Made by a program: the position numbers and the translations under genes. Of a DNA stretch of 64,000 nucleotides, positions 5,714 to 28,335 are shown piece after piece (position 1 is the stretch's first letter; every line of letters begins with the position of its first letter). Origin of the DNA: a virus; the IMG/VR virus record IMGVR_UViG_3300046467_002136, positions 1 through 64,000 of that record; one strand, 5' to 3'. The notes beneath the pieces are model-generated. The model was not told the origin of the DNA and did no database searches. It worked only from the letters and a program-made list of their open reading frames with translations.

Positions 5714-7135
5714 TTATACGGAACCATCAATATGGGCATATGTGGCACTCGTAAGAGTTATGTTGCTTGTTATCGTAGATGAAGATGTGTCGGTAACAAT
5801 CACTATGCCACCAAGCTTGCCTGCAACCCCAGCTGTTCCAGTTCCACCTGCTCCACCAGTTCCCCCGACACCACCCGGATCTTGGTTTCCTGCAGCGTAA
5901 TGAGCTCCGTGACTGTAAGGATTTCCCGGCGAATCGGCCACCGGGTCACCTCCAGTGGGCGGGTCGCCCGCTACGGGTGGGTTACCTGTATGGGGTGGGT
6001 TACCTGTATGGGGAGGATTGCCCGTATGGGGAGGATTACCCGTATGGGGAGCGTTGCCTTGGGAAACAACAGGATTTGGGGGATTTGGGTAATCCGCATG
6101 CACGGGTGGGCCAGGCCCGTAAGCCGTGTACGGATTTCCGGCAGAGTAATACCCATTTGTTGGATGATGGAAGGGCGGATTGTGCGCTCCGTGTGAAACC
6201 GGCGGGCCAGGTTGTTCTTTCGAAGTAGGCGGAACCGGGTTCCCACCAGTAGGTGGATCTCCAGCTGTGGGCGGATCTCCAGCTGTGGGCGGATCTCCTG
6301 TTATGGGCGGATCTCCTGTTATGGGCGGATCACCTGCTACGGGCGGATCACCCGCTACCACGGGATTTGGGGGGTTAGGAACGGGAGAATTAGTCCCACT
6401 CCCAGCAGGACTGTGGGAGTCAGGATTAGCAGCACCCGGATTACCGGTAGAACCAGAACCCCCCGGAACGCCTGTCCCTCCGGAAGAACCCGTAATACCG
6501 ATACTTACGATTGTTCCAGTACCAGTAATGGTTTTAGCCACAACAACTACTAAACCACCGCCCGTTCCTCCCGCACCCCCAGAACCTGTACCTCCAACGG
6601 CTCCCGGGTTTCCCGGATTACCCAGTGGTGCATTACCCGGAGGGGCGCCACCCGGATTTCCCGGACTTCCCCCCCCATCGGCACCATCATCACCATCAGA
6701 ACCACCTTCGAAACGTTTAAAACCGTTCGTAGGGTCCCAGTTCCAACCCTGAATGGCGTATTCTAAATCTTTTAATATGGATGTTGGAACTTGAGCCGCA
6801 CCACTTTCATCGGATTCGCCCAAAACGTATGTTTTAGTGCCTCCGGCGGCTCCATCGGCAACACGACCAACGACAGTTCCCAAACCTACAGTGTGGGTTG
6901 TGCCAGAAGGCATGCCCATAGTTCCAGAAATTGTTAATGTGCCAGTGCAAAAAACGCGGAATCCGTTGGTGAAAAGAGTTGCACCACTACTGATAGTGCA
7001 GTCCGTGTAATACATGTCCCGAGCTAAAATAGTTGTGCCAGAAGAGACGCTTCCCGCTCCGTCGTAACCCGTGCCATAGATAATGTCGTTGCCCAGTCGC
7101 TGAACAACAGGTCTATTGTGTCGAATAATGGGCAT
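5714..7135 (-). CDS. Gly/Pro-rich putative virion or adhesin protein with hexapeptide repeats
   Basis: N-terminal YGTGxDG...DMYY...TNGFRVF domain shared with 7135..7860; G-x-x runs; xxGDPP and HTGNPP arrays. Confidence 0.8.
   Translation of the reverse strand: MPIIRHNRPVVQRLGNDIIYGTGYDGAGSVSSGTTILARDMYYTDCTISSGATLFTNGFRVFCTGTLTISGTMGMPSGTTHTVGLGTVVGRVADGAAGGTKTYVLGESDESGAAQVPTSILKDLEYAIQGWNWDPTNGFKRFEGGSDGDDGADGGGSPGNPGGAPPGNAPLGNPGNPGAVGGTGSGGAGGTGGGLVVVVAKTITGTGTIVSIGITGSSGGTGVPGGSGSTGNPGAANPDSHSPAGSGTNSPVPNPPNPVVAGDPPVAGDPPITGDPPITGDPPTAGDPPTAGDPPTGGNPVPPTSKEQPGPPVSHGAHNPPFHHPTNGYYSAGNPYTAYGPGPPVHADYPNPPNPVVSQGNAPHTGNPPHTGNPPHTGNPPHTGNPPVAGDPPTGGDPVADSPGNPYSHGAHYAAGNQDPGGVGGTGGAGGTGTAGVAGKLGGIVIVTDTSSSTITSNITLTSATYAHIDGSV
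5938..6365 (-). repeat. Two 18-bp tandem arrays encoding (V/I/T)(A/T)GDPP x6 and HTGNPP x4
   Basis: ggcggatctccagctgtg-type units at ~6250-6360 and gggttacctgtatggggt-type units at ~5975-6050. Confidence 0.85.
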
Positions 7136-7860
7136 CAGTCAACCTCGACGTAGATGGCTGTCCCATCGGTGTGGTTACCTGAGCCACTTCCTTTCGCCGC
7201 CGACAATGATAAGTGTGTTTGGGCGTTGAACGTAGCTTCATCATTTGACGAAAAGAATATAATGGCACCGCCACCCGCTTGGGCGCCGCCAGTTGCAGAG
7301 ATTGTGCAAGCTCCGGCTGTGGATATGTATCGTGCTGCGATAATTACCACTCCTCCACCAACCCCTTGGCCAGTTGGGCCACCTGCTCCACCTTCTAAAT
7401 AAGTAGGGGTGGTTGCTGAAGCGGTAACCGCATAACCACGAATGGCTTGGCTTGGATACCTCCAATAAGAAGTTCCACCCTGTACAGCAGTAGGTGCAGT
7501 AGCGGTACCTCCATCGGCTGAACTGTCTGTGTTCCCATTGCCGCCGAGACTGCATGTTGTATTGGCTGTGATTACCCCTCCAGCTTTTAGAGTGCCCACG
7601 GCAGTTGAACCACCGGGAAGGCCAATAACTGATGAAGCTCCCATGGTTAAAACGTTTTTTACGAATAGTCGATATCCGCCGGTATTGAGTGTAATGCTGC
7701 TATTAACGGTCAAGTTGTAGTAGTACATGTCGCTAGACATGGTGGAATTAGTAGATATCGTTGCATCTAGATCTGCACCCGAGCCGTAAACGTCATCTGG
7801 TGAATCCAGGAAGCTTGCCAATTTGCCAGGCGAGTTGACCTTAACCCTGCCCCACACCAT
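7135..7860 (-). CDS. Glycine-rich putative virion protein, paralogue of 5714..7135
   Basis: YGSGADLD...DMYYYNLT...TGGYRLFV; GGGVVIIAARYI. Confidence 0.75.
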   Translation of the reverse strand: MVWGRVKVNSPGKLASFLDSPDDVYGSGADLDATISTNSTMSSDMYYYNLTVNSSITLNTGGYRLFVKNVLTMGASSVIGLPGGSTAVGTLKAGGVITANTTCSLGGNGNTDSSADGGTATAPTAVQGGTSYWRYPSQAIRGYAVTASATTPTYLEGGAGGPTGQGVGGGVVIIAARYISTAGACTISATGGAQAGGGAIIFFSSNDEATFNAQTHLSLSAAKGSGSGNHTDGTAIYVEVD

Positions 7861-8201
7861 TAGGTAATCTCAATTCCGCTCACCGTCGCATTAACGCTAG
7901 AAGCGTTGCCACATAACATATGCAACTCGTCTCCGGTGTTCATAACCATTGACATGTTGAGAAGCGTTGTTTCTTTTTCTGTGAGGGATAAGTCTTTGAA
8001 TATCTGATGTGTGTCAGCAATGGTGACACTGTTTGGCTTCAGTGTGATGGTCACTGTCTGTGCTGAAGCTGTGATATTTGTCAGAACTATTTGTTTTACA
8101 ATTGTTGATGTACCGCCCCCTACCGTGTATTGGACGCCACCGTATGTACCCGTGTTGATTACAACTGCGGGTCCAGACAACCTTGTTTGTGTCAGTGCCA
8201 T
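7860..8201 (-). CDS. Small beta-rich putative virion protein
   Basis: Translationally coupled to 7135..7860; YTV...TIVKQIVLTN...SGIEIT pattern common next to phage tail-fibre genes. Confidence 0.65.
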   Translation of the reverse strand: MALTQTRLSGPAVVINTGTYGGVQYTVGGGTSTIVKQIVLTNITASAQTVTITLKPNSVTIADTHQIFKDLSLTEKETTLLNMSMVMNTGDELHMLCGNASSVNATVSGIEIT

Positions 8202-8254
8202 AGATTAGGTCCTTCCCGAAAAGTTGCACTCCTGTACATATTACCAGTCATACA

Positions 8255-9130
8255 CTACTGCGTATTACTCTTTGGCGGGATTAACTCGCCGAAGAGCCAA
8301 TCGAATAGGCGTTTTTTGAAAGACTTTTGGTTTCCAGCGACAGGACACATCTCTGGAATTGGCGCTCGTTTCTGTTCTCGTCGATAAGCCCCCGTCCTAT
8401 CAATGGGAATGCTTATCGGTGATTCTAAACCTAAGCTCATCATTAAAGGAAAAAGCTTTGGTTGACCGTAATCGATCTTCTGCACCCCCCTGGGGAATGT
8501 CATGAATTGAGCAATTGGGGTTCCCATAGGGATCATGAATTCATCGTCGGTGTAAATATTGATAACCCAATTCATGTGGTGGTAATAGTCAGTATTTACT
8601 ATGCCCGGTATCAGAGACCAATCTCTTGAGGGCTCCATCAAGTAAGGAAGTAATAAAGTCGACCATCCTGGTGCTGTTTTGACGATCCATGGATTAACAA
8701 TTTTTATTTGGTTGCTTTCGGGCAGGCCGCGATCACGATTGAAGGGACACTCTTCTCCGGAAGCTTCATATTCAAAAATGTCTATCTCAAATCGGGGAAT
8801 AAGAAATCCGTTTCTAGGACCTGTATCCCCATCCCACATAGCTTCCCAATTTTTTCCATCTGGTGATGGTCTGAATCTCACGTTGGCAGGCAATCTCCAT
8901 GTTCCTCCAAGCGAAATGTAGTCAGATGTTCCTTGACAGGCTTTAAATCCGCCTCCAGCTTTCCTTCTCCAAGGAGGCCAAACCTTAGAATTATTCAAGG
9001 GAGTGATTCTAGGGTCGTAAAGACGTTCATGATTCGGGATTAAAAGGATCTCTCCGGGAGACACTTCCACATCGGAAGCTATGTGATAATCATCACCAAG
9101 AAGATCTTCACCTTTGATCCGGAAGTCCAT
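8255..9130 (-). CDS. DUF6065-like hypothetical protein
   Basis: FKAC.G..DY...G, KIVNPWIVKTAPGWSTL, PGIVNTD, GTPIAQF; distantly similar to 23919..24932. Confidence 0.6.
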   Translation of the reverse strand: MDFRIKGEDLLGDDYHIASDVEVSPGEILLIPNHERLYDPRITPLNNSKVWPPWRRKAGGGFKACQGTSDYISLGGTWRLPANVRFRPSPDGKNWEAMWDGDTGPRNGFLIPRFEIDIFEYEASGEECPFNRDRGLPESNQIKIVNPWIVKTAPGWSTLLLPYLMEPSRDWSLIPGIVNTDYYHHMNWVINIYTDDEFMIPMGTPIAQFMTFPRGVQKIDYGQPKLFPLMMSLGLESPISIPIDRTGAYRREQKRAPIPEMCPVAGNQKSFKKRLFDWLFGELIPPKSNTQ

Positions 9131-9148
9131 GTTTGTACTTTAGTCGAA

Positions 9149-9844
9149 TCACGCAACTTTCATTGCGAGAGAGACCCCTAACCCTGAAGCCATATGGTAA
9201 ATTCGAGCATCCGCCATATCTGCGATGGCCGTATAGAGATCAGCATAATCGTGGGCACTGTCGTACTCAAACCATTTCCCATGGTCCGTTGTGCTGGTCA
9301 AAACGATTGACCCACCTACAGGTAGTTGGGAAAAAACATTTGTTACGATGTCAAAATTATGGTTAACCTGAGGCATGTGGATAGAGGCCATATCGTAAAT
9401 TGTTGGAAACAACGAATCTTCGACAGCTGTCATATCAAGGGTTTCATATTCTAAACCCGATATATCCATATGTCTTTCCATGTAATCTAAATGCAGGTTG
9501 TTGACAAGGGTGACATTTCCGATTCCTAATTTGAGTGGACAATAGGGAATCCCTATCACCAGCAATTCGGAAGGGTTCGCTAAACGAATCAGCATTTCTT
9601 GCATGCTTCGCATGTGGCTGTTAACCGCGTGAAAACTCGGAGAGTCTGATGCAATCCGCTCGTAGACACACAGTTCGTCGTTGTAGCCAATAACCCCTAT
9701 GCTTCGATCCATTCCATGACCGAGCTCTTCGTTGACTATGGCTGTTGCGGCAGTAATTTCTGATGCAGAGTCCATATTCGATTTATGATCAGCGGAAGTG
9801 GCTGCTTCCGCAACTTTCATCATGTCAATTGCGTCTAATGCCAT
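9149..9844 (-). CDS. Class I SAM methyltransferase-like protein (divergent)
   Basis: C-terminal YDMASI...QLPVGGSIVL...G.G...A.K pattern of O-methyltransferases; no clear GxGxG; paralogue of 15452..16213. Confidence 0.5.
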   Translation of the reverse strand: MALDAIDMMKVAEAATSADHKSNMDSASEITAATAIVNEELGHGMDRSIGVIGYNDELCVYERIASDSPSFHAVNSHMRSMQEMLIRLANPSELLVIGIPYCPLKLGIGNVTLVNNLHLDYMERHMDISGLEYETLDMTAVEDSLFPTIYDMASIHMPQVNHNFDIVTNVFSQLPVGGSIVLTSTTDHGKWFEYDSAHDYADLYTAIADMADARIYHMASGLGVSLAMKVA

Positions 9845-10116
9845 TATCCGTTCCTAGCTTGAATGAGATCGCGCTGATATATGAATTTACGAGCAATGTC
9901 ATAACGTCTTTGTCGTCCTCTGTAAACAGCTCGTTCTGACGCCGTCCAGTTTTCTGGATCGTAAACAGCGACGCTTTGGTACGTCGTAGTAATCAATGCT
10001 TTGAGCTCATCGAGAGTAATTGAGTTTGCAGATGTTTCGTCCCCGCCGACTCCGGCGATTTGAGTAGCTAGAGAATTACAGATATAAATGTAATGAGCAT
10101 CCATATCGTAAGCCAT
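9844..10116 (-). CDS. Small hypothetical protein (paralogue of 15150..15452)
   Basis: Coupled stop/start with neighbours; ITLDEL...I..T..RR...R pattern shared with 15150. Confidence 0.7.
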   Translation of the reverse strand: MAYDMDAHYIYICNSLATQIAGVGGDETSANSITLDELKALITTTYQSVAVYDPENWTASERAVYRGRQRRYDIARKFIYQRDLIQARNG

Positions 10117-10265
10117 TATGCTGTCTCCTCCGGTGGGTTCAAAATAGGATCGTCCAAGGTCATAACGGGGACATCAAACATGTTACATGGGACGGTGACG
10201 CCACTTTCGGGATCGATATCTCTATCCGTCCCCGAATTCCATCGTTCAGGTTTGACATCAGGCAT
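10116..10265 (-). CDS. 49-aa hypothetical protein (below the ORF-track cutoff), paralogue of 14959..15153
   Basis: MPDVKPERWNSGTDRDIDPESGVTVPCNMFDVPVMTLDDPILNPPEETA; GGAGA RBS; TAATG overlap with next gene. Confidence 0.65.
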   Translation of the reverse strand: MPDVKPERWNSGTDRDIDPESGVTVPCNMFDVPVMTLDDPILNPPEETA

Positions 10266-10300
10266 GATGGGTTCTCCAAGGAAGTCCTTATCTTATTGTA

Positions 10301-11047
10301 TCAGTCGTCTTTCTCGACGATCTCGTCTTCGTCTTCAGGTGTGTTTTTAAGACGAACATATGGAGATGACTCTGGATTCACGGTCCTGTTGTTATGCGCG
10401 TCCCATTCGGATTGCTGACAGGTAATAAAAGTAGACATAATGAATTTGTCTGAAGAAATCGGCACTAAGCCAGAGTGTGGGTGAGTCCAATGAGTAGGAA
10501 ATATAGCTATTCGACCTGCTTTAGCGGATATCACTTGACCCTGTTCTTCGAAACGAGTACCTCCTCCGACTTCAATATCGTTGAGGTAAATGAGAACTCC
10601 AAGGACTCGTTGCGTTATGCCTCCTGAAGAATGGTACTCCCATGGCACACCGTCACAGTGCTCGCGATACCATCCTGCTCCTTGACCAGAATGCTGGACT
10701 CGAAACCCTGTGTCCGTTAAACCCGGAGCGTGCCATAATTGCCTGTAAATCTCTTGATATTTGGCCAGAATAAGACGTACTGCTAAATACGCTTTGCTAT
10801 GTAGCGTGGCAAAAATAGGTACTGTATCGAGATTGCGTGTCTTTAAATAATCTTGAGCAATGCCCGTGTCCATATTGCTCTTGACTAAAGGACGAAGTCC
10901 CCCCAAGGTTGGACCTGGCTCAAACATGCTTTCGTAATAACGTCTAAAAGCTTCTACAGCTTCGTCGCACACCGATTTTTCGATAGCGTTATCAAGAGTC
11001 ATTATGTAATTGTCTTTACCACCCGGAAGATCAAATGAAAAAGTCAT
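10301..11047 (-). CDS. 2OG-Fe(II) oxygenase, prolyl-4-hydroxylase-like
   Basis: HCD...IYLND..GGGT.F...FPT.WTHPH. Confidence 0.85.
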   Translation of the reverse strand: MTFSFDLPGGKDNYIMTLDNAIEKSVCDEAVEAFRRYYESMFEPGPTLGGLRPLVKSNMDTGIAQDYLKTRNLDTVPIFATLHSKAYLAVRLILAKYQEIYRQLWHAPGLTDTGFRVQHSGQGAGWYREHCDGVPWEYHSSGGITQRVLGVLIYLNDIEVGGGTRFEEQGQVISAKAGRIAIFPTHWTHPHSGLVPISSDKFIMSTFITCQQSEWDAHNNRTVNPESSPYVRLKNTPEDEDEIVEKDD

Positions 11048-11048
11048 T

Positions 11049-12584
11049 TCATTGTTCCAATCTTGGAATCAGTATTCCGCCGAAATCATCAAAATGCCAT
11101 TCAGCACGATTCTCTGCGTATTCCTTATGGGCACGTTTCAACACGGTTCGATGAGGAAGTTCCCGACCCGACTGTAAACGGTCATCTCTTATATCCATTA
11201 TTCTCTTTTGGCAGGAACCAGGAGAATCATTTGCTATAACTCCAGCCATGCATCCTTTGGCATTAATCAAACCTTGACCTTGTCCAACATGCCAAAAATG
11301 ACTAGATCTAAATAGTTCAAATCCAGTTAAGTCCAGATCGTGATCTTCTGGTCCCCTGTATTTAAACATTTCAATTAAAAAATTAAGCAATTCTGTCCTG
11401 TTCGCATTTTGCTGCTCTACCCACATTGGCGAATCGTTGCGATCAGTGACGTAATGCATGCCCACCATAGTCAAAAGGTTATCGAACATTGAATCAAAAA
11501 CCTTCAAGTACCCATGTTGTTGAACACCAGAATTGGGTTCATAGGTAGGCAGATAAGAACAAAGTAAGCGACATTGTTCAATGGTCGCTGCTATGGAGGT
11601 TGCCTCTAAGGGTTCAACGAAATTGGAAGCTAATCCAATAGCGACGCAATTGAATTGCCACGAATTCTGTACTTTGTATGGTCTGTATTTGATAGTTCGG
11701 ACATCTTTGACGGGTTCATCGATGTATTCTTCGACTTCTTTGATCGCATGTTCTTCATCAGTGTGACGCGAAGAGAATACATATCCGTGCCCACGACGTT
11801 CATAAGTAGGAATATCCCAATGCCAGCCTGCAGACAAAGCTTTAGCTTCGGTAAAAGGTTTTATTGAGTCGTTTCCGGGTGTTTGGAATACCAACGCCGT
11901 ATCGCAAGGAAGATAATCATCAAAAAAGGTTTGATGAGTGTTGTCAAGTTCCTTGAGAATTACTTGGTTGAACCCACTCGCATCAATAACAAAATCTGTT
12001 TTCACATCTCCCGTAGACGTGACTATGGTCGTAATATCACCAGAATCGGAATCCCTTTTTATCCCAATTACTGAAGCATCTATAAAATTAACGCCCTGTG
12101 TCAAAGCGTGTCCTCTTAAAAAGCCATTCAGTTTTGCACTGTCAAAATGAAATTGGTTTACTTGATTCCATGGCTGTTTCGTGTCCTGCACTTCATTATC
12201 AATTAATCCAGGATGAGCAAGTGTGGGTGTGAGTTGTCTGTCAGAGGCATGAATGTAACTATAAAGACCGTTGAAACTGCCTAGCCTCGTATACAGCCCC
12301 TCGCCAACGATGCTATGAAAATAGTCTGGCGTGTGGGTGGTCCAATCCAAAAATCGAATCCCATATTTGAAAGTAGCCATCGAAGCTTTGATTAGATCAG
12401 GGCGGTTTATTCCTACTCTTCCTTCGTAAGCAGCCCAATGTTCGGTACTACCTTCCCCTACTCCAATGGGAGGGATGTCACCTGAAGCGATAACGGTTAC
12501 GTCAAATTTGTGAAATGCGGCTTTGATTGTTGTTGCTGCGATTAAGCCTGCTTGCCCTGCCCCAACGATAGAAATACGTTTCAT
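11049..12584 (-). CDS. Flavin-dependent halogenase (tryptophan halogenase / PrnA family)
   Basis: GAGQAG FAD motif, IGVGEGS, ATFKYGIRF (catalytic-Lys position), GWHWDIP (WxWxIP), FVEPLEATSI. Confidence 0.85.
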   Translation of the reverse strand: MKRISIVGAGQAGLIAATTIKAAFHKFDVTVIASGDIPPIGVGEGSTEHWAAYEGRVGINRPDLIKASMATFKYGIRFLDWTTHTPDYFHSIVGEGLYTRLGSFNGLYSYIHASDRQLTPTLAHPGLIDNEVQDTKQPWNQVNQFHFDSAKLNGFLRGHALTQGVNFIDASVIGIKRDSDSGDITTIVTSTGDVKTDFVIDASGFNQVILKELDNTHQTFFDDYLPCDTALVFQTPGNDSIKPFTEAKALSAGWHWDIPTYERRGHGYVFSSRHTDEEHAIKEVEEYIDEPVKDVRTIKYRPYKVQNSWQFNCVAIGLASNFVEPLEATSIAATIEQCRLLCSYLPTYEPNSGVQQHGYLKVFDSMFDNLLTMVGMHYVTDRNDSPMWVEQQNANRTELLNFLIEMFKYRGPEDHDLDLTGFELFRSSHFWHVGQGQGLINAKGCMAGVIANDSPGSCQKRIMDIRDDRLQSGRELPHRTVLKRAHKEYAENRAEWHFDDFGGILIPRLEQ

Positions 12585-12588
12585 AGAC

Positions 12589-13152
12589 TCAGCTCGGCCA
12601 CATGTATCTAAAAGTCAAAAACGCTTCTTTGTCAACTGGTTTTATTCGTAGATCCGTAGGAAATCCGCACGGCATAAGTACAACATCTCCCGCAGAAACA
12701 TCGAATTCGACATCATGTCGGTCCAATCTCATAACTACATCACTCAGAGCCATCGCTATAAGAGTTGTGACAAAATTGTTTTGTGGCCAAAGGGAGGCAG
12801 AAAAGTTATCTCCGTTACCTTTAAGCCACATCATATTAGTTCCGGTGTCTAGCTTGTAATTAATGCCGTACATTCGGGCATGACTATGTACACAGTCTTC
12901 GGTTATCTCGTTCATGTCCCAAAAAGCTTTTCGTATCTTGGCTAATTTAGGAATAGCAGATGAATGAACATTAGACATAGGAGAAAAACTGCTTGCACAG
13001 TGTTCTCCCTCGTATTTAACGCCGACATAAAAAGGCACATAAGACCAAGGTCGCTCGGCTTCCACCATGTAGCTTTCGATAAGATCACCAGCGTCATAAC
13101 CACAATGGAAAACTTCGACACCGGGAACTATTTCAGTAACTCCAGTAATCAT
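12589..13152 (-). CDS. Degenerate 2OG-Fe(II) oxygenase-like protein lacking metal ligands
   Basis: Aligns by eye to 25389..26105 (YGIN...TN; AGD....P..FP) but has no HxD or distal His. Confidence 0.5.
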   Translation of the reverse strand: MITGVTEIVPGVEVFHCGYDAGDLIESYMVEAERPWSYVPFYVGVKYEGEHCASSFSPMSNVHSSAIPKLAKIRKAFWDMNEITEDCVHSHARMYGINYKLDTGTNMMWLKGNGDNFSASLWPQNNFVTTLIAMALSDVVMRLDRHDVEFDVSAGDVVLMPCGFPTDLRIKPVDKEAFLTFRYMWPS

Positions 13153-13811
13153 ACGAAAAATCCCGCGAGGCTGTATTTAAGCTCTTGGCTGTTTAAACCG
13201 GTTGGTTCCGAGGCGTGAGAATAAACATACGAGGAAGGGAAAACAAGAATGTTCCCTTCTACCGATGGAACAGAAACATTTTGATAAGGAAAAACAGTAA
13301 CGCCACCGTCCTTGACCGTATTCAAATACACGATGCACGATATGATTCGGGGGTCATTGGTGCCGTGATCGGTATGAATTTTATATTGACCACCATGACC
13401 GTATTTGTTGATACTCCATGCCTGACAATCGTTAAGTTTTAAATCGTATATGCGTCGATAATCCCAAATAGCCCGTTCGGCTTCGTATAAAACTGGATAT
13501 GCAATTTTTTGGAGCTCCGTATAAGTGTCAGCAAAAGGGTCAGCTCCACCTAACATCGAGTCCAAGTCTTTGCCTCGACTGGTTCTGATGTTGCTTGCCT
13601 TTAGACCATCTCTTCGTGAACCAGTTTTTGATTGGTCCCAATCGGTTGACTCACCGTCTATTTCTATTCCTTCTATAAACTTTTGACCGTCGAACGAACC
13701 ACTGTAAACATGCATAAAAGGAGCAATCTCAACATGAGGAAAAGGATCGTTTTCTAAGGATTGGCGAGCGAGATGCGGGTTCGGTATCCCTTTAGGAAAC
13801 GTTGTTACCAT
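13149..13811 (-). CDS. 2OG-Fe(II) oxygenase, prolyl-4-hydroxylase-like
   Basis: HTD...IVYLN...GG.T.F...FPSSYVYSH...KYS. Confidence 0.85.
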   Translation of the reverse strand: MVTTFPKGIPNPHLARQSLENDPFPHVEIAPFMHVYSGSFDGQKFIEGIEIDGESTDWDQSKTGSRRDGLKASNIRTSRGKDLDSMLGGADPFADTYTELQKIAYPVLYEAERAIWDYRRIYDLKLNDCQAWSINKYGHGGQYKIHTDHGTNDPRIISCIVYLNTVKDGGVTVFPYQNVSVPSVEGNILVFPSSYVYSHASEPTGLNSQELKYSLAGFFV

Positions 13812-20155: not shown

Positions 20156-20796
20156 ATTCTTTCTCCCCATCCTTCGGGCACATCGTTATTTTTAGCTGAC
20201 TCTTCTTTAAATTCTCTAGCTTGCACTCCCGGAGGTAAGACAATCGGGACAAGAGAACTTAGCGGGTCATTGAAGAATAGGTCCGATACGGATCGCGCAT
20301 CGTCTCCACTGAGCCACATGAAGCGTCTCAGATCACCCATCTCGTGTGACATGGGGTACCCATAGATACCGCACTCAACGTAGCTGTTGAGCAAGGTGGC
20401 GTTTTCTCGAAAGTCCTCCCAGTTGGTCGGGTGAACCCAATTGCAGTCAACATAAATACCTGAAAAGTCAGCTGCTATGGCAGCATCCATCGTTGGATAT
20501 GACTCGGCTCTGGGATAAATGCCTTCTTCTGTGACCATCGTTTGCTTTTCTTCATCCCACACGGCGCTTTCTCCGATGATGACACCACCAAACTGAGAGA
20601 CAGAAAACACAACATCTGCTTCTTCGAATACTCGATTTAGAGTTTCGACTTCTTTCGTTCCTACCAAACGAGCTCGTTCTTGGGTTAATTCGGAACGACT
20701 CTTTGTGGCTGACAACACGTTGTGACCGGCTCGAAGTAACGCATCAGCGATGGTGGCTCCCATTGCCCCTGTGTGGAGTATTCCTATTGTTGCCAT
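20152..20796 (-). CDS. NAD(P)-binding oxidoreductase, 6-phosphogluconate/3-hydroxyisobutyrate dehydrogenase-like N-terminal domain
   Basis: IGILHTGAMGATIA...GH.V; ADVVFS; YVDCN. Confidence 0.7.
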   Translation of the reverse strand: MATIGILHTGAMGATIADALLRAGHNVLSATKSRSELTQERARLVGTKEVETLNRVFEEADVVFSVSQFGGVIIGESAVWDEEKQTMVTEEGIYPRAESYPTMDAAIAADFSGIYVDCNWVHPTNWEDFRENATLLNSYVECGIYGYPMSHEMGDLRRFMWLSGDDARSVSDLFFNDPLSSLVPIVLPPGVQAREFKEESAKNNDVPEGWGERI

Positions 20797-21389
20797 AGGT
20801 CGTCACTCATCACGCCTTGGCGTGTTTCTCGTTGTATCGCCGTGCCTGTGGGCTCATAGGGGTAGAGGTTACCAGCTATAGAGACACGGTCTCTGTCAGG
20901 GAATTGTCTTGTTGTCATGTGTTGGTAATAGGCCCCAAAGATGACCAGTAGACCCGGACGAAGCGAGATGCTTTCAAGCTTTTCGAGACGATTGCAGTAC
21001 ATGATGTGAATCACCATGTCAGCATCGTCCTCCTCGCCCAAGGGGTAGTAGCAGAAGGAAAAGTGTTCTTCTGGATTCAACCAAGTATTCGACCAGTGGG
21101 AATGGGCCATGACGGACTGCCCGGGTCCTGTATACACACCCCAAATGGCGTCTATGTAATACGGTCGGCCTAACAACTCGCAGGCAGCACTTGTGATCTG
21201 CTGCCGCAAATCCATCGTGATGCTCCCAGTTGGTAAGTCGAAGTCCTTATGCGGCTCATGTTTTTCAACAACAAAATCATGAATAGCTTTAGCATTACGG
21301 CTGTCCAACTCACATGTCCAATAGCCAATATCAACAATTGAATGCCGTTGGGCATTTCGTATCGGCGAGGGTCGCTCTCTATCTTGCAT
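20784..21389 (-). CDS. Putative 2OG-Fe(II) oxygenase (HxH type)
   Basis: W......G.....HSH...SFCYYP...PG.L.IF.....H......RVSIAGN. Confidence 0.75.
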   Translation of the reverse strand: MQDRERPSPIRNAQRHSIVDIGYWTCELDSRNAKAIHDFVVEKHEPHKDFDLPTGSITMDLRQQITSAACELLGRPYYIDAIWGVYTGPGQSVMAHSHWSNTWLNPEEHFSFCYYPLGEEDDADMVIHIMYCNRLEKLESISLRPGLLVIFGAYYQHMTTRQFPDRDRVSIAGNLYPYEPTGTAIQRETRQGVMSDDLWQQ

Positions 21390-22197
21390 CGGGGAGTTTG
21401 TAACCTTCTGGCATATAGATATTTGTTGTTGTGTCTGCCATTTCCGGGTGTTCAAGTGGATCTATAACAGACTCGTTAAATTTGCCGTTTGGCGTTCCGT
21501 GACAGTACCACCCTACATGCGAATACCTTGACCCTCCGGAAACCTCAGAAACAGAATGCGCCGCCATGTAATTTGCAGGGAATAAAATAATGTCGCCCTT
21601 GCTTGGCTTGTATTCAATATCTAAGTATTCCCACGACACCAGTCCCCCCGTGAAATTGGTTCCGTCTAGCTCTGTTTCGGTCTCGACATGATCGTTGAGG
21701 AATGCCAATGTAGACACTACGGTGCGTGTGGCTATCTGATCTGAGGGGTGTGGCGAACCGTACTCATAGTCTGTGCTTTGGTCGGAATGTAGACCCAAGT
21801 AACAGGTTTCGGGATAGACCAGGATGTGTCCTTTAATTTTCCACCAGATGCAGTTGCCTGCCAGCGGGAATTTGTGGAGGTAGTACCACAGGCATAAGTC
21901 TCTAGCGTCTTCAAGAGCCGTCAAAGCTTCTTTGGCTTTTGGGTTCATGTCTCTGTGGACATAGGCGCAGTGCCTAGGCATGCTCCATACGGATGCCGAG
22001 GGGAAGAAATATCCGTTCCGGTTTATGTACCCATCTTCACCACTAATGGGGTCTTTGCCCGGTGTATACATGTCGGCAATTTCTTTTTCCGCCGACTCTT
22101 GAGAAAATTCTCGAATAAAGTCCCAGTCGAGCTCCACCGCGTTCCGATAGAGAATAACGCCACTACCGAGTTCTTCACCGTCCAAGTTCATGTTCAT
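21379..22197 (-). CDS. 2OG-Fe(II) oxygenase (WW subfamily)
   Basis: IWWKIKGH...LGLHSD...FPANYMAAHSV..V..G.RYS. Confidence 0.85.
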   Translation of the reverse strand: MNMNLDGEELGSGVILYRNAVELDWDFIREFSQESAEKEIADMYTPGKDPISGEDGYINRNGYFFPSASVWSMPRHCAYVHRDMNPKAKEALTALEDARDLCLWYYLHKFPLAGNCIWWKIKGHILVYPETCYLGLHSDQSTDYEYGSPHPSDQIATRTVVSTLAFLNDHVETETELDGTNFTGGLVSWEYLDIEYKPSKGDIILFPANYMAAHSVSEVSGGSRYSHVGWYCHGTPNGKFNESVIDPLEHPEMADTTTNIYMPEGYKLPDAR

Positions 22198-23935
22198 CCA
22201 TCTCTAACATGATGGTCAGAAAGTCTCGGATGTCCCCAACGATCTCTTTGCGTTCTTCGTTTGTTTTTAGATGATTGAAACATCCGAATACGGTATCGAC
22301 AGCAAATTGGACTAAAAAATCTTTAGGAGGTTGTCCTCCATTTTCTTCGAAGTGGCCCGTATACGAAATGAAGGGTAAATTCTCCCACCTGTATGGTCGT
22401 TCTTTATGGCTTGGGTAATGCATAAAGTCCGGATAGTGCCAAGCATGACCAGCGTGTCGGAGATCTCGACGAGCTTCAGTCATGGCGACGATTTGATTTA
22501 CGCAGTTGCTAAATAATGGATCGTCTACTGATTTGTATGCTCGGGAAATGTCTCCGTTTTTCGTAAACATAAAGATTTGACCCATTGGATCTACTCCGGG
22601 ATTCCAATATGGAGCATATTTAGAACAGAGAATATGGTTCTGGTCAAAAGGAATTTTCACAACATGAAAATCTGGGTATGGGAGCTGATCACACTCAGCC
22701 CAGTTAGATCCTTGAATTTGTTCCCATAAAGTTGTTATCTGATCTGGAATGTTCGAATATTCATCTTTAACAATAAAAAATATTGTTACGGAGTTGACTA
22801 AATGTTTGAATTCAGGAAGGGCGTAAATCCCTTTAGTGAGCACCAAGGGAATATGATCCGGATTCGCTACGGCGCTTGCCCAATCATCTTTTACGGGTCC
22901 GTCGTTTTCGCTACTGAACTTTTTACTAACTGTTAAGCGTTCATCTTTTGGTGGATTACCAACCTTTGGAGGAGGCTCAACTATCTCTGTGAACTTACTG
23001 GGGTCGTAATATGGTTTATCTATCCCCACTTCATAACGAGTAAAGACCCTTTCCTCAAATTGGAATTCAGGACTAAAGGCATGGATGAGGTTTCTGTTAT
23101 CCCAAATAAACAGATCTCCCACATCCCAAGACCATCTGAATCGAAGATCTTCACGTTGGAGCCCGTTCAGCATCCATGCTTTTATCTCTTCCCATGGTTC
23201 AGTTGTTCCACCCACGGGGTTGCACTCTGTTGGATTAAACCAAAACGAGGTTTTCCCAGTAGCGGGGTGGGTTCTCAAAGCTGGAAATGTTACTGATTTC
23301 CCATAATGAGGGGAAGTCAACTCGTGTTCTCCGTGGTTTGCTTCTGGATCAGCTCCCAACGAATGAACTACTTGAAGATCCTTCAAATACTCTCTCATAT
23401 GTTCAGGCATAATTTCATAGAGATATTCCAAACTGGCGACCAGCGTGTCGTCATTACCGACAGCCTCTGTTCGTACATCCATCCGCATACTCTGAAGAGC
23501 AGGTGGGGACTCATGAAAAGGATTATCTACATGCCAATTGCCCCTAATGAAAGCTTCGGAAGATTCGAAGTCATTCAATGGGTGTTGTTCTACCATCCAC
23601 GAATGATCAACATTTAGGATATTTCCTTGCGACGGTGGGTCGTCGTCATCTCCCCTGTAAACAGAATTAACTATTGCTATTTGCTCTTCAACCGTGGGAT
23701 GCAAATACTTAAAACCAATAGCTTGATGTTTGGTGAATAGGTCAGCATAAAAATCAGAGTCATCAAGTATCTCTTGGGGGGTCACCCCTTGGATTCTCAA
23801 ACCCAATCGACCGAGATGTAGTCCTGACGCCACTCCGGTACCACTTGGGGAATCATTCCCATCTCCCCGTTCACGCGGTTTGTCAGCTTCGGCCATCGTC
23901 GTATCGTACCGCTGACCTTCAGGCAGGTTCGACAT
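22175..23935 (-). CDS. TauD/TfdA-family dioxygenase with a long unknown C-terminal extension
   Basis: WHVD, DTLVAS, RTHPATGK, W..GDL.IWDNR..IH...R; start placed at MSNLP. Confidence 0.8.
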   Translation of the reverse strand: MSNLPEGQRYDTTMAEADKPRERGDGNDSPSGTGVASGLHLGRLGLRIQGVTPQEILDDSDFYADLFTKHQAIGFKYLHPTVEEQIAIVNSVYRGDDDDPPSQGNILNVDHSWMVEQHPLNDFESSEAFIRGNWHVDNPFHESPPALQSMRMDVRTEAVGNDDTLVASLEYLYEIMPEHMREYLKDLQVVHSLGADPEANHGEHELTSPHYGKSVTFPALRTHPATGKTSFWFNPTECNPVGGTTEPWEEIKAWMLNGLQREDLRFRWSWDVGDLFIWDNRNLIHAFSPEFQFEERVFTRYEVGIDKPYYDPSKFTEIVEPPPKVGNPPKDERLTVSKKFSSENDGPVKDDWASAVANPDHIPLVLTKGIYALPEFKHLVNSVTIFFIVKDEYSNIPDQITTLWEQIQGSNWAECDQLPYPDFHVVKIPFDQNHILCSKYAPYWNPGVDPMGQIFMFTKNGDISRAYKSVDDPLFSNCVNQIVAMTEARRDLRHAGHAWHYPDFMHYPSHKERPYRWENLPFISYTGHFEENGGQPPKDFLVQFAVDTVFGCFNHLKTNEERKEIVGDIRDFLTIMLEMDEHELGR

Positions 23936-24932
23936 CAGTTCTCGTTTCCCATGTTGATTCAACCGATTGGTCTGGGACATCGAGTACTTGATGTCCTTCA
24001 TACTTCGGGCCGATGCGATCATCGTGTTCATTCAAACCTGTACGCAAGCTACCCATCCATGTCCATGGATTGTCGAGCATGTTTTGGTCTTTGGCGGCTC
24101 CATACGCTATTCGTGAATCCAACTGTGCTTGGTCCTCCCAAGCGTTGCCAACATTAAACTGGACTTCAGATAGCGCATCATCCTTCACGAAGGTGAACCA
24201 CATGTAGGGCATCCCTTTAGGGAAGGTGATAATTGAATTTAGTTTGGTGACTTTCCAGTTCATCGCAAATGGATCTGGCCACCAGCCGGGGATCATGGCA
24301 GACAGCGGAACAACGCCATCCATAAAGAAGTTTGGTGGACCGGAAATGAAAGTGCTGTATCCCTCAGGAGGATTGAATATCCAATCCACGGCAATAGACA
24401 GAATGCCAACGATTGATGGCATAGCTAAATCCCGCTCATAGCCACTTTCTACAGGTTCTGGTTCCGGCATATCGGAGATCTCAGGTATCTCCGGATGCTG
24501 TAGTTCTGGCATTTCATATTCGGGATCAACCCAATCCTCTGGAGGCTGTCCAGCCCAACGACGAGGAGGGATCGGAGGAGGAACCTCCATCACAACCTCT
24601 ATCCATGAAAACGTTTCCTCATCCCAAGTATAAAAATTGCCGTCATCCGGATATGGGGGCATTACGGGCACGGCTGCGACTTCTGAAGGTTTTTGAGTTG
24701 CTACACACTGTCTCGTTAGTCCACTAAGTACCGTAGGGACACTTCTGTCGTCATACTGTATAAAAGACACCTCTTCAGGGAGAATCACTTCCCAACCAAG
24801 AGTGTTAGCAACCGTTAACGGCAAACACTTGTAAGCATGTTTTTTATAGCTCTCGTCCATCCAATCCCGCCGAGGACGTGATTGACGAATTTCGGGAGGC
24901 TGATGGTGTACGCGAGTAAGTCCTACCTCCAT
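23919..24932 (-). CDS. DUF6065-family protein with an internal Pro/acidic insertion
   Basis: RRDWMD...HAYKCLPL.VAN..GW; GPPN; PF.MNWK; F.KG.P. Confidence 0.7.
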   Translation of the reverse strand: MEVGLTRVHHQPPEIRQSRPRRDWMDESYKKHAYKCLPLTVANTLGWEVILPEEVSFIQYDDRSVPTVLSGLTRQCVATQKPSEVAAVPVMPPYPDDGNFYTWDEETFSWIEVVMEVPPPIPPRRWAGQPPEDWVDPEYEMPELQHPEIPEISDMPEPEPVESGYERDLAMPSIVGILSIAVDWIFNPPEGYSTFISGPPNFFMDGVVPLSAMIPGWWPDPFAMNWKVTKLNSIITFPKGMPYMWFTFVKDDALSEVQFNVGNAWEDQAQLDSRIAYGAAKDQNMLDNPWTWMGSLRTGLNEHDDRIGPKYEGHQVLDVPDQSVESTWETRTDVEPA

Positions 24933-25420
24933 GTCTCTCCCTTGAGCTTCTTGCCATCAATTTGCTTTAAATTGACAGTTCCAGAACCGAGGGCAACCAA
25001 CCGACCTTTGTTTTCGATACGGGTTGTAACAACGGCAGCACTCTTGCTCAGAGATTCAATCGTTGAATAGGCGTCACAGATACCACCCTCGACGCTCTTT
25101 AAGTAGTTGATACTGAGATTGGAGGTCGCTACCCAAGTACCGGCAGGAACAAAAGGATAAACAACTAATGGCATAGCCGTATCAACAAGAGAAGCCAAGC
25201 AGGCACCGTGTAGCTGTCCGGTAAACATCAAGTGCTGATCTTTGACGAGGAAAGCGCAATGGCACACGCCACGCACATCATCGATTTCTACAATCGCAAC
25301 TTCAAGCCAAGCAGCGACTCCAGCGGAGAACCCGTTTTCCCCAAACTTGGTTCCAACCATGTTTTCAATGAATTCGGGATGTTTAACTTCAAGCTGCAGA
25401 TGCTGACTCAATTTGCCCAC
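24923..25420 (-). CDS. PaaI-like hotdog-fold thioesterase
   Basis: G.LHGACLASLVDTA...T.NL.INYL...LVA.G.GT. Confidence 0.8.
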   Translation of the reverse strand: MGKLSQHLQLEVKHPEFIENMVGTKFGENGFSAGVAAWLEVAIVEIDDVRGVCHCAFLVKDQHLMFTGQLHGACLASLVDTAMPLVVYPFVPAGTWVATSNLSINYLKSVEGGICDAYSTIESLSKSAAVVTTRIENKGRLVALGSGTVNLKQIDGKKLKGETWR

Positions 25421-26105
25421 CTAAAGTATGTGCCGAATCTGACTCGCTTGAAAGATTAGTACCACGAGCCATTCCGGGCTGTTGGTGATTTCTATCGTTG
25501 TAGTCGTACATCGTGACTGCTGAGTACTTTAGCTTGTCTCCGATTATTGGTAACGACTTGTGAACGTAAGGGTAGTTGGACGGAAACACCATGAGGTCTC
25601 CCGCTTCAGGAGTGAACTTGATATCCATGTTGGGCAAGACCAGCTCTCCTCCCTCGTAACCGTCGTTTAGCCAACCAATCGTTGATGTCACAGCGCAGTA
25701 CGAGAAGCCGTGGTCGGGGTGCAGTTCAAAATGCTGACCTTCCGCATACTTCACAAAGTTTGTGGCTTCTTCAAACTCAAGATTGATGCCGTAATGCGGG
25801 CTGTAGTGGCTATGGACCGCCTGCCTCACAGGCTCGATATATTCTGTGTACACCGCACCCAAGTCTTCAAAACCGGGAGCTGTGACAGGCAGGGCCATTT
25901 CTGCCATTTTGAAGTCACTACAATCCCGGTAGTCAAGCATTTGATCCATGTCTCCGACAGTGGCTCCCTTCCATGAAAAGAACTCGTGTTCGCTGCCGTC
26001 TAAGGCCGCTTCGAGTCGTTCAATGAGGTTTGCCGGATCAGGCCAGACATTCTTGTATAAGATGATGGCCATAGCGGGATGGCCGCAGAAGCCTGCGATT
26101 TCCAT
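25389..26105 (-). CDS. 2OG-Fe(II) oxygenase, prolyl-4-hydroxylase-like
   Basis: KY..GQHF..HPD...LNDGYEGGEL...FPSNYPYVH...KYS. Confidence 0.85.
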   Translation of the reverse strand: MEIAGFCGHPAMAIILYKNVWPDPANLIERLEAALDGSEHEFFSWKGATVGDMDQMLDYRDCSDFKMAEMALPVTAPGFEDLGAVYTEYIEPVRQAVHSHYSPHYGINLEFEEATNFVKYAEGQHFELHPDHGFSYCAVTSTIGWLNDGYEGGELVLPNMDIKFTPEAGDLMVFPSNYPYVHKSLPIIGDKLKYSAVTMYDYNDRNHQQPGMARGTNLSSESDSAHTLGGQIESASAA

Positions 26106-26755
26106 TAATTCGCTCCTAAGTCTGTAATTGTAGTGAAAGCTGGACTAGTCCACCTTACCCCGGAAGTTATTTCTTTGACTCCGTGTAGATAGTGGATATC
26201 GCCCGGATGGGCAACTGCCATACCGGCTTCAATTTCTAAACAAATGTCGTGATCTTGGTAGTAGAACTGTCCACCCTCGAAATTGTCATTCCAGTAGATA
26301 ATTGAATTGATGTCATAACTAGGAAATGGATTAGGGGTTCCGTCGTTGAGTTGTTTATCCGAATGTGGGCTTTGAAGGTTGCCGGGCAGCCATCTAACAA
26401 TTACAGGTGGTCTCATGTAAACCTTGTAATTGAACTTTTTTTCGATGAGATACTTGAGTTTCATGTTGTATTTGTCAACAAGGTCATGCAATTCGAGGTA
26501 ATTGTCTCTAAGAATCCCGGTATTGCAGACCCGATCCCACCAATAAGAGGCGTCGTAAATGCAAGTGCCCTCATCGTTGAAGATATCCGGACTTGGATTA
26601 TGCCACTCGGTGATGTTCTCTACCAGAAATTGAACTCGTGTGAGGTCAGATGTCTCGACAAGGTCTTTCACGACGATAATGTGATCAGTAGAGTTACCGA
26701 AATGTCCGGGCTCTATCAGAGACGAGTCTAAATCAACGTCCTGATCCGGGTCCAT
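26105..26755 (-). CDS. 2OG-Fe(II) oxygenase, prolyl-hydroxylase-like
   Basis: VRW.PG..Q.PHSD...IYWNDNFEGG...PG...YLHGV.EITSGVRWT. Confidence 0.85.
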   Translation of the reverse strand: MDPDQDVDLDSSLIEPGHFGNSTDHIIVVKDLVETSDLTRVQFLVENITEWHNPSPDIFNDEGTCIYDASYWWDRVCNTGILRDNYLELHDLVDKYNMKLKYLIEKKFNYKVYMRPPVIVRWLPGNLQSPHSDKQLNDGTPNPFPSYDINSIIYWNDNFEGGQFYYQDHDICLEIEAGMAVAHPGDIHYLHGVKEITSGVRWTSPAFTTITDLGAN

Positions 26756-26785: not shown

Positions 26786-27772
26786 CTATACCCCTTTGCC
26801 AACCTGAAATTTGTCTCCGTACTCCAAATGGTCAGCTTGGACCGATTCAGTTGGTAGTGTCCACTGTTGTTCTGGAGAATCGCCATCTTCTGTGGGTTCT
26901 CCGAGCAAATCGTCGATATGAGCACAGAGGATTGCTAGAGATTCTGTAATACCTCGTCTTTGCAGGGCATTGGGGTACACGCTGTTCCCAAATCCATCTA
27001 GACCAAGGGCTTCACGGACCTCACGGCGTATTTGCCCATCTTCTTGCCAACTACCTGGGGGAACAACAACTTCTTCTGTGTGTCCTTCTATAAACCACGG
27101 AAATACTTCCCCTTTGGGATCTCGTTCCCCGAGTAGGAATCCGTTGGCATAGCGCGTGAAGCTCTGTCCGTCTCGACTAACGAGGAATTTCTCAAAATTC
27201 CCTTGCAGCCCGGAAAATCCCGGCTTGCTGTCATCCACTATTTGTGGAGGGTCTGCCCAAGGGCTTGCTTCTTTGTGGTGCGGTAAATTGTTTTCGTCTC
27301 GTTCCAAATGAGCGCAATCCACCATGTGTTGCCAAAATGGGTCCATTTCTTGCTGGTGTTGTGCTCCGGGTTGCCATTTGGGATCGTAAACGTGTTTGTC
27401 GAATCTCCCATTAGTTAGTTCGGAAAACTGGAAGTCAACTCCATAGTTGTTTTTAGCGTACTTCTCAGCTACTTGACTGGCATTCAGATCTTTGTATTCG
27501 CCAGTTTTTTCATTTTCAGCGAAGGCTTCTAAGCCGTCATTGAATTCACCGTAACCATGACAGGTGAAATCGTCTACGACGATAGCCCTGATCTGAAAGT
27601 CATCCTCGTCTTTATAGTGCTCATCTAATGCTTTGAGCGCGATCATCTGAGGGTAGTTGCCACAACCCGCAGCAATATTAAAAACAAGAGTGACTTTCCC
27701 TTTGCAGTCATCCAGAATGTCCGGATTTTCTCCATCTGCTGACGCAATTTTGAAGTCATATGCGCTACCCAT
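26786..27772 (-). CDS. Glutathione-peroxidase-like protein (Cys type)
   Basis: KGKVTLVFNIAAGCG..PQ...L..L...Y; NFEKFLVSRDG. Confidence 0.75.
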   Translation of the reverse strand: MGSAYDFKIASADGENPDILDDCKGKVTLVFNIAAGCGNYPQMIALKALDEHYKDEDDFQIRAIVVDDFTCHGYGEFNDGLEAFAENEKTGEYKDLNASQVAEKYAKNNYGVDFQFSELTNGRFDKHVYDPKWQPGAQHQQEMDPFWQHMVDCAHLERDENNLPHHKEASPWADPPQIVDDSKPGFSGLQGNFEKFLVSRDGQSFTRYANGFLLGERDPKGEVFPWFIEGHTEEVVVPPGSWQEDGQIRREVREALGLDGFGNSVYPNALQRRGITESLAILCAHIDDLLGEPTEDGDSPEQQWTLPTESVQADHLEYGDKFQVGKGV

Positions 27773-27774
27773 GA

Positions 27775-28335
27775 TTACCCCTTAAAGCCCGGCGGGAAAT
27801 GCGGCGGGAAATGCGGCGGGAAATGCGGGGGGAAGAATGGTGGGAAGAACGGCGGGAAGAACGGCGGGAAGAACGGCGGGAAGAAGGGCGGGAAGAATGG
27901 TGGGAAGAAGGGCGGGAAATGGGGTGGGAAGAACGGTGGGAAGAATGGTGGGAAGAATGGGGGGAAATGGGGTGGGAAGAACGGTGGGAAGAACGGTGGG
28001 AAGAATGGGGGAAAGAACGGGGGAAAGAACGGGGGAAAGAATGGGGGAAAGTGAGGTGGGAAAAACGGGGGAAAATACGGGGGGAAATGAGGGTTGTATT
28101 GGGTGTAGTCGATGTTTGTCGCGAGTATATAAACTTCTCCAGCCGTCTGTACCTGACTGGCGACTGTACCTACAACCCCCGGGTTGCCTGAGGGGGCGTC
28201 AGTATCGCTCATCGTTCCTATATCAAAATTAGCTGCAGTGATTTGAGAGTTGGCGTTAGCAACGGTTTCCCCAACAATGTTGGGGACTATGCCCTTTCTG
28301 GGCTGTTCTTGGCCCTGCCCGCCATGTGTCACCAT
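27775..28335 (-). CDS. PASTA-like domain fused to a (Pro-Pro-x-Phe)25 tail
   Basis: VPNIVGETVANANSQITAANF...GTVASQ..AG followed by 25 PPxF units; tightly packed between tail-fibre and GPx genes. Confidence 0.8.
   Translation of the reverse strand: MVTHGGQGQEQPRKGIVPNIVGETVANANSQITAANFDIGTMSDTDAPSGNPGVVGTVASQVQTAGEVYILATNIDYTQYNPHFPPYFPPFFPPHFPPFFPPFFPPFFPPFFPPFFPPFFPPHFPPFFPPFFPPFFPPHFPPFFPPFFPPFFPPFFPPFFPPFFPPFFPPHFPPHFPPHFPPGFKG
27784..28095 (-). repeat. 12-bp tandem coding repeat (PPFF/PPHF)
   Basis: Plus-strand units such as ggcgggaagaac, ggtgggaagaat and ggcgggaaatgc, with synonymous variation. Confidence 0.95.

Follow-up and report, generated by a model that had tools for sequence, protein, structure and literature searches.

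Two separable enzyme cassettes behind the tail-fibre gene of an uncultured myovirus, one paired with an aromatic-Phe-Pro-Pro repeat protein as a candidate substrate

The 2-oxoglutarate (2OG)/Fe(II) oxygenases and flavin halogenases of marine and freshwater phages have had unexplained targets for about 20 years and are usually filed as auxiliary metabolic genes. In phage Syn9, such genes form a cluster (gp41-gp54) of ten dioxygenases and two halogenases, joined by a dUTPase-fold protein that has a conserved cysteine; the proposed function was secondary-metabolite synthesis, and no protein substrate was named (Iyer, Abhiman, de Souza and Aravind 2010, PMC2938197). Phages P-SSM2 and HTVC008M likewise carry a halogenase beside oxygenases, inside structural modules. 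For chlorovirus PBCV-1, a prolyl 4-hydroxylase (P4H) is described that hydroxylates Pro in the (Pro-Ala-Pro-Lys)n repeats of the virus's own proline-rich proteins (Eriksson et al. 1999, as related in PMC3634087). Here we analyse a 64-kb stretch of viral DNA (the window), the first part of the 114-kb IMG/VR contig IMGVR_UViG_3300046467_002136 (CheckV completeness 76%), in which an island of oxygenase, halogenase and other enzyme genes follows a tail-fibre gene. The island consists of two separable, independently mobile cassettes: module A, which starts with a protein of 25 tandem x-Phe-Pro-Pro units (the xFPP-array protein), and module B, which joins a Syn9-type cluster to fibre-type genes.

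The source phage is a non-T4-like myovirus, with a sheath and terminase ~40% identical to their counterparts in Gordonia and Arthrobacter phages. Most of its genes lie on the minus strand, so that the island is read from 28.3 kb down to 5.7 kb, and the 64-kb window holds no tRNA genes. The inventory of the island (Table 1) rests on Pfam, NCBIfam and PHROGs scans of its proteins, with Pfam scores judged against curated cut-offs.

On sequence evidence, module B is a member of the published Syn9-type cluster. Both combine tandem 2OG dioxygenases of several families with Trp-halogenase-type genes and lie just behind tail-fibre and fibre-assembly genes, and the family profile of g8255, the dUTPase-fold protein of module B, matches Syn9 gp43 (dUTPase fold, conserved Cys) at 3e-18. 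The window phage differs in being a non-T4 myovirus. For the accessory JmjC/MINA-type member represented by Syn9 gp49, the ~30 island proteins gave no JmjC or cupin Pfam match at E <= 0.01, a scan that remote members could escape. The core of module A (true DUF6065, the g26105 family and the xFPP array) had no match in the examined regions of Syn9, P-SSM2 and HTVC008M.

As in PBCV-1, the genes for a P4H-family 2OG oxygenase and for Pro-rich tandem-repeat proteins are present in one and the same viral genome; both core oxygenase families of module A match the PBCV-1 P4H structure 5c5t, weakly (0.02-0.03). However, PBCV-1 is a eukaryotic algal virus with a single enzyme, whereas the bacteriophage of the window combines prolyl-3-hydroxylase (P3H)-like and P4H-like enzymes with a dUTPase-fold partner and as many as ~10 further oxygenases. 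In addition, the repeat of the window is aromatic-Phe-Pro-Pro, the genes are strictly adjacent and their activity is predicted only.

The xFPP-array gene begins 3 nt past the stop of the 1775-aa fibre gene, and the fibre, array and GPx genes abut with gaps of 2-3 nt. Fibre homologues sit ahead of the array gene in almost all related loci. The N-domain of the array protein (~85 aa) scores 21.1 bits with PASTA PF03793, just below the cut-off of 23.2, and many homologues carry a precomputed PF03793 match. Its 25 units are encoded by 15 different 12-nt variants with mixed Pro codons; therefore, selection acts on the peptide and not on the DNA. Arrays of the xFPP type are encoded in more than 50 viral contigs. 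About 20 of these have an N-domain homologous to that of the window (35-71% identity), and their proteins end without exception in a strict (F/H/Y)-F-P-P array; in the other array proteins, the array, mostly ending in ...PPxFK, terminates FN3/Ig-type proteins of 130-730 aa. A large protein database contained 192 relatives of the array protein, many with PASTA or fn3 Pfam matches and none with a functional name. In the papers searched, the repeat motif strings do not occur, and none of these papers joins hydroxyproline, bacteriophage, 2-oxoglutarate and virion.

Several array loci show further variation. At L036:5274-6932, a 553-aa variant carries a PASTA-like head, PFFPPTFQS-type units and pure FFPP runs, with 3-4 Cys-rich globular inserts interleaved; the contig (14.5 kb) has no oxygenase genes. 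In L004:705-941, L005:5424-5603 and L006:2-208, the array DNA is open in an alternative (L/I)PT(V/I) frame and not in the xFPP frame, which could be an assembly frameshift or a programmed shift. L039 and L053 have two arrays each (~0.9-2.1 kb and 10 kb) and two fibre genes, each with its own xFPP gene, and a single enzyme set after the second fibre/array pair. A collagen-like identity of the repeats was considered and dropped, since Gly is absent from the xFPP units and falls at every sixth residue, not every third, in the G(D/N)PP units of the module B repeat protein.

Three genes, g26105, ox25389 and DUF6065, form the core of module A. No Pfam match was found for g26105; the best match of its family profile is human prolyl 3-hydroxylase 1 (P3H1, 8k0e, 2.7e-10), with Bacillus anthracis P4H at 4e-6. 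The family profile of ox25389 matches B. anthracis P4H (3.3e-7), the collagen lysyl hydroxylase LH3 (8e-5), P3H1 and, weakly, PBCV-1 P4H (0.019). By these profiles, the nearest solved relatives of both core oxygenases (collagen P3H/P4H, LH3 and B. anthracis P4H; 8k0e, 5hv0/3itq, 6fxk) are enzymes that hydroxylate protein-bound Pro or Lys, and the HxD...H plus Lys/Arg layout is shared. Such hydroxylases act on residues in polyproline-II-type repeats, and P3H and P4H act on adjacent prolines of collagen. The window differs in that its arrays lack Gly at every third residue, its enzymes are small and single-domain, and identity is low and limited to the catalytic core. The invariant residues of the DUF6065 alignment include Cys36 and a WWPD motif, with no HxD...H motif. 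The DUF6065 model (pLDDT 65) aligned with dUTPases at a VIA-align Z of ~10, with an rmsd of 2.6-2.8 Å over 110-123 residues, and Foldseek on this model returned nothing at E <= 0.001. The window copy of DUF6065 has a ~90-aa Pro/Glu-rich insertion (residues ~76-165), which is missing from most homologues and modelled with low confidence.

The array protein and the core trio are inherited together without exception in our sample and are absent together in relatives. In the forward test, the gene maps of all array loci show members of the g26105 and ox25389 families together with DUF6065 wherever downstream DNA is available. The genes for GPx, TauD, the thioesterase and the dehydrogenase, like the five-member oxygenase family, come and go between loci. 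In the reverse test, seeded with DUF6065 and g26105, the array was present in all 40 loci with upstream DNA, the other six being cut at a contig end. A seed-neutral test, seeded with the structural gene g33676 upstream of the fibre and with near-identical loci collapsed, gave 11 clusters with array and trio, four with neither and none mixed. The association persists despite an inverted g26105, inserted extra fibre genes, a duplicated array gene and an exchanged N-domain. Fibre sequences and N-domains vary freely; what stays constant is the pairing of array and trio. Five contigs assigned to metagenome-assembled genomes (MAGs) are further phage loci of the same build: L192-L196 were binned to MAGs of Gammaproteobacteria, Verrucomicrobiales, Acidibacter and Cyclobacteriaceae, have the complete locus of fibre, array and trio, and are either mis-binned phage contigs or host hints.

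Module B moves independently of module A. The relative G001, complete at 98,060 bp with terminal repeats, has a fibre followed directly by g7860, par/GDPP-like genes and the halogenase block, and its whole genome contains no array and no module A gene. The same module B block is found in L055-L058, L121-L129 and G001. It always adjoins g7860 and the Gly-rich par/GDPP-type genes, across three gene orders: with the enzymes ahead of the fibre-type genes (the window and G003), with the enzymes behind them (G001 and L057), and with the whole block upstream of g34181 (L121-L129). The original prediction, made from the sequence alone, had correctly placed a (PPxF)25 protein behind the tail fibre and an xxG(D/N)PP-array protein at the far end, and had read them as substrates bracketing a single island. 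The single bracketed island gives way to two mobile cassettes. As for the substrates, comparative genomics supports the xFPP protein as a candidate, whereas the G(D/N)PP motif is young and lineage-specific.

From the anatomy, conservation, co-inheritance, catalytic motifs and folds of these genes, we infer a series of chemical steps and a location in the virion. We put the probability that the window holds two fibre-linked protein-tailoring cassettes, with module A enzymes modifying the array protein by hydroxylation, at roughly one in two. Module A would be co-transcribed with the tail-fibre gene. The array protein would be small and of a surface type, with its PASTA-like head followed by an ultra-hydrophobic (aromatic-Phe-Pro-Pro)25 tail, and would be modified by the module A enzymes. 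The P4H-like (Lys-type) and P3H-like (Arg-type) 2OG/Fe(II) oxygenases would hydroxylate the Pro-Pro pair of every unit, giving a product akin to the 3- and 4-hydroxyproline (3-Hyp/4-Hyp) of collagen, or to the Hyp of extensins and the PBCV-1 (PAPK)n proteins. Hydroxylation may turn an insoluble polyproline-II-type rod into a rigid and hydrated one, displayed at or near the fibre. DUF6065, with its dUTPase fold and conserved Cys, may be an obligatory partner that possibly holds the substrate, and the extra oxygenases, TauD fusion, dehydrogenase, thioesterase and GPx-like protein may perform or support further oxidations, e.g., of His, Tyr or Phe side chains. By the same logic, module B would act on the adjacent Gly- and His/Pro-rich fibre-type proteins.

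Plant extensins and other hydroxyproline-rich glycoproteins (HRGPs), as well as mussel foot proteins, offer a parallel: Pro-rich aromatic tandem repeats become rigid or adhesive extracellular rods by Pro hydroxylation, together with Tyr oxidation. These proteins are eukaryotic and secreted through the endoplasmic reticulum, and their repeat units are unlike xFPP. Neither a glycosyltransferase nor a tyrosinase was found in the island.

Several observations weigh against hydroxylation of the array protein by module A. All loci come from related phages, so that the co-occurrence partly reflects shared ancestry, and a tree of g33676 (12 evaluable rows) needs only two changes of state; the co-occurrence statistics therefore overstate independence. 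The P3H/P4H matches are confined mainly to the catalytic core, which does not fix the substrate. On bacterial chromosomes, neither an oxygenase nor a Pro-rich protein consistently adjoins DUF6065; rlmN is often close by, and a 2OG oxygenase is nearby in 2 of 21 loci. In one of the two, L205:3915-8903 (Woodsholea maritima), the neighbours of DUF6065 are a P4H-superfamily 2OG oxygenase, rlmN, an ATP-grasp ligase and a C26 peptidase. The candidate substrate region of module B is not conserved in sequence. Megablast of the island gave no cultured-phage match, nor did tblastn of the array protein, DUF6065 and g8255 against cultured phages, and the system thus has no cultured representative; the sole link of g8255 to a cultured phage is the profile search leading to Syn9 gp43. 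Finally, TauD/TfdA, hotdog thioesterase and Rossmann dehydrogenase, to which several island genes belong, are families of small-molecule enzymes, and secondary-metabolite synthesis is the sole reading published for such phage clusters (PMC2938197).

The last two points belong to the main rival explanation, which we consider unlikely: a small-molecule pathway, making halogenated or hydroxylated secondary metabolites derived from amino acids or serving other auxiliary metabolism, with the repeat proteins as mere neighbours in a hyperplastic spot behind the fibre genes. The GPx-like gene is, like the three families just named, typical of small-molecule enzymes, and the TauD fusion resembles small-molecule TfdA/TauD enzymes. 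Accessory gene content differs widely among relatives, and cultured cyanophages and pelagiphages carry halogenase plus oxygenase genes without a known substrate. However, Pfam family scans of the island proteins detected neither a peptide synthetase or ATP-grasp ligase nor a carrier protein or exporter. Protein Pro/Lys hydroxylases are the nearest relatives of the core oxygenases, and array and trio strictly co-occur and are lost together, which a mere insertion hot spot would not predict.

Modification of another protein, such as the large tail fibre or another virion or host surface protein, is improbable. Here the xFPP protein would be a fibre accessory, i.e., a tip adhesin, an assembly factor or a docking strip for the hydroxylases. 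The array gene indeed lies where fibre-assembly or adhesin genes usually are, arrays are joined to the adhesion-type domains PASTA, FN3 and Ig, and P4H-family enzymes are known to bind poly-Pro. In the closest relative, L113, the fibre is another, longer one, and small unrelated genes come after it until the contig ends, so that the array gene cannot be called an obligatory partner of the fibre. Against these points, fibre sequences and N-domains vary freely while array and trio stay constant, and G001 keeps a homologous fibre without the trio. It is very improbable that the array is the multi-core precursor of a ribosomally synthesised and post-translationally modified peptide (RiPP), the alternative raised in the original prediction: a leader-like N-domain, many identical units and adjacent tailoring enzymes resemble such precursors, but the array is not accompanied by any conserved protease, cyclase or transporter, no protease, transporter or exporter family was found in the island by the Pfam, PHROGs and NCBIfam scans, cleavage motifs between units are absent, the same array is fused to PASTA, FN3 or Ig surface domains of up to 700 aa and ends FN3/Ig proteins of 270-730 aa, and the locus is embedded in the fibre module. 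Modification of nucleic acids was also considered and dropped, as no AlkB- or TET-type match rose above chance level.

On the question, raised in the original prediction, of whether repeat type follows the oxygenase set, the TauD fusion, the dehydrogenase and GPx occur more often than expected within 10 kb of His-containing arrays (Fisher p 3e-5 to 1e-2). We do not take this enrichment as evidence, because it is uncorrected for phylogeny and because TauD lies further downstream in some Tyr-type loci.

Module B resembles module A in having one P4H-like Lys-type oxygenase and one dUTPase-fold protein. The model of g8255 (pLDDT 55) gave the same match list as DUF6065, with Z of 9.7 and 9.0 to dUTPases. 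In sequence, the two share only sub-threshold, profile-level similarity (hhalign was weak, and a Pfam scan of g8255 family members found nothing), and their likeness is settled at fold level only. The module B halogenase, whose translation shows GAGQAG (GxGxxG) and WHWDIP (WxWxIP), is judged from its sequence to be a regular member of the flavin-dependent Trp-halogenase superfamily. It is closer to BrvH (2.6e-48), SttH, RebH and PrnA (1e-42 to 1e-48 for the four) than to VirX1 of cyanophage Syn10 (PDB 6qgm; 2.8e-33), a viral enzyme of this superfamily. We know of no natural substrate of VirX1, whereas the window offers a His/Pro/Gly-rich fibre-type protein as a candidate halogenase substrate.

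Homologues of the GDPP-type protein keep the N-domain and the Gly-rich arms, and the centre is a different His/Asn/Pro-rich low-complexity stretch in each phage. The 18-nt G(D/N)PP repeats of the window are ~90% identical in DNA and are therefore recent. The second bracket of the original prediction is thus a hypervariable region, in which no substrate motif is conserved, and we read the G(D/N)PP arrays as young, lineage-specific duplications. If module B has a target at all, it would be the Gly/His-rich fibre-type protein as a class and not the G(D/N)PP motif. The GDPP-type protein had no match in PDB, PHROGs or NCBIfam.

The xFPP protein is a concrete candidate substrate for the unexplained oxygenases of aquatic phages. 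More broadly, and only tentatively, we propose that aquatic tailed phages run multi-enzyme post-translational chemistry on their own appendages, building a poly-hydroxylated aromatic-Pro-Pro rod, extensin- or mussel-glue-like, and a halogenated and hydroxylated, hypervariable His/Pro-rich fibre tip. If true, dozens of orphan 2OG oxygenases and the VirX1-type halogenases of marine phages would gain their first natural substrates, and the metabolic or secondary-metabolite reading of these genes would be overturned. Phage receptor-binding structures would then be chemically tailored, which bears on host range, virion stability and adhesion, and new peptide hydroxylases and halogenases with defined substrates would become available. 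As each cassette is tied to a specific fibre-associated protein, the question can be addressed by simple experiments.

Table 1 Features of the island and the preceding tail-fibre gene, in window coordinates
Feature	Coordinates	Strand	Description
Tail fibre	28339..33666	-	Receptor-binding, 1775 aa; Mtd_N N-terminus (Pfam PF18454, 1.4e-14)
Module A	~14.3-28.3 kb		Starts with the (x-F-P-P)25 protein
xFPP-array protein	27775..28335	-	PASTA-like N-domain + 25 (F/H/Y)-F-P-P units, end GFKG; candidate module A substrate
GPx-like protein	26786..27772	-	Thioredoxin fold, large insertion, variable accessory; PF00255 29.2 bits (cut-off 27), NCBIfam GPx 9e-9
g26105	26105..26755	-	Core oxygenase 1, prolyl-3-hydroxylase-like; H131xD133...H191...R201 invariant; P3H1 profile match
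ox25389	25389..26105	-	Core oxygenase 2, prolyl-4-hydroxylase-like; PF13640; H129xD131...H182...K193 invariant
Thioesterase	24923..25420	-	Hotdog (4HBT/PaaI-type), accessory; PF03061 4e-9, TIGR00369 1e-15
DUF6065	23919..24932	-	Third core gene, dUTPase-fold; PF19541 120 bits; invariant Cys36
TauD fusion	22175..24031	-	TauD/TfdA-type dioxygenase + ~280-aa C-terminal region without family; PF02668 6e-26, PDB 6d3h 1.5e-17
Accessory block of module A	15150..22197	both	Oxygenases and unknowns
Five paralogous oxygenases	16225..17256, 17213..18112, 18113..18889, 19463..20170, 21379..22197	+, +, +, -, -	PKHD-like
ox20784	20784..21455	-	Weak oxygenase call; sub-threshold PF13759 match only
Rossmann protein	20152..20796	-	Rossmann N-domain; dehydrogenase
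ox18886	18886..19470	+	Oxygenase
Unknowns in accessory block	15150..15452, 15452..16213	+, +	
Module B	5.7-14.2 kb		Syn9-type halogenase/dioxygenase/dUTPase-fold cluster + fibre-type genes
Module B enzymes	8255..14227	-	g13805, ox13149, g12589, halogenase, ox10301, g9844, g9149, g8255
ox13149	13149..13811	-	P4H-like Lys-type oxygenase; nearest paralogue of ox25389
Halogenase	11049..12584	-	Trp_halogenase PF04820, 306 bits
ox10301	10301..11047	-	Oxygenase
g8255	8255..9130	-	dUTPase-fold, DUF6065-like by fold; Cys65 invariant
Fibre-type genes travelling with module B	5714..8201	-	g7860, par, 5714..7135
g7860		-	113 aa; fibre-type gene
par	7135..7860	-	Gly-rich
GDPP-type protein	5714..7135	-	par-like N-domain + Gly-rich arms around hypervariable Pro/His insert; xxGDPP x6, HTGNPP x4

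The island contains oxygenases of at least four sequence groups. Eight genes score above the PF13640 cut-off (27 bits) and ox18113 scores at it, to which the TauD fusion and, by profile, g26105 are added. The family of five paralogues is nearest to PKHD-type hydroxylases such as PiuC, with H137/D139/H214/R224 invariant in the alignment. Thirteen 2OG-Fe(II)/TauD-fold genes had been claimed at the outset, and 11-12 are supportable, since g12589 has neither an oxygenase motif nor a family match and ox20784 stays below threshold; the HxD...H...R/K layout ascribed to most of them is clean in eleven. The family scans bore out the flavin halogenase, the hotdog thioesterase, a Rossmann N-domain in the supposed dehydrogenase, a GPx-like match for the supposed peroxidase, and one of two supposed DUF6065-like genes, g8255 being a remote relative by fold only. 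The two genes taken for methyltransferases (9149..9844 and 15452..16213) are paralogues (E 8e-9) that matched no methyltransferase model in Pfam, NCBIfam or PHROGs, and the methylation proposed with them falls away.

The C-terminal ~280 aa of the TauD fusion (residues ~345-618) had no family match, and the fusion is kept in relatives of 509-613 aa. At L071:1-690, a carbamoyltransferase-like fragment, another accessory enzyme type, is followed by two extra oxygenase paralogues, upstream of a g26105-like gene. At the start of the window, the contig end truncates a gene (positions 3-4907) whose product exceeds 1635 aa and contains PEPEPE runs and an acidic Trp-rich region. This protein has no PHROG or Pfam match; its homologues lie directly after the fibre region in L134, which is without both cassettes. 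Outside the island, the window holds one more PF13640 oxygenase (56932..57804), not far from a PAPS-reductase-like gene (54688..55815).

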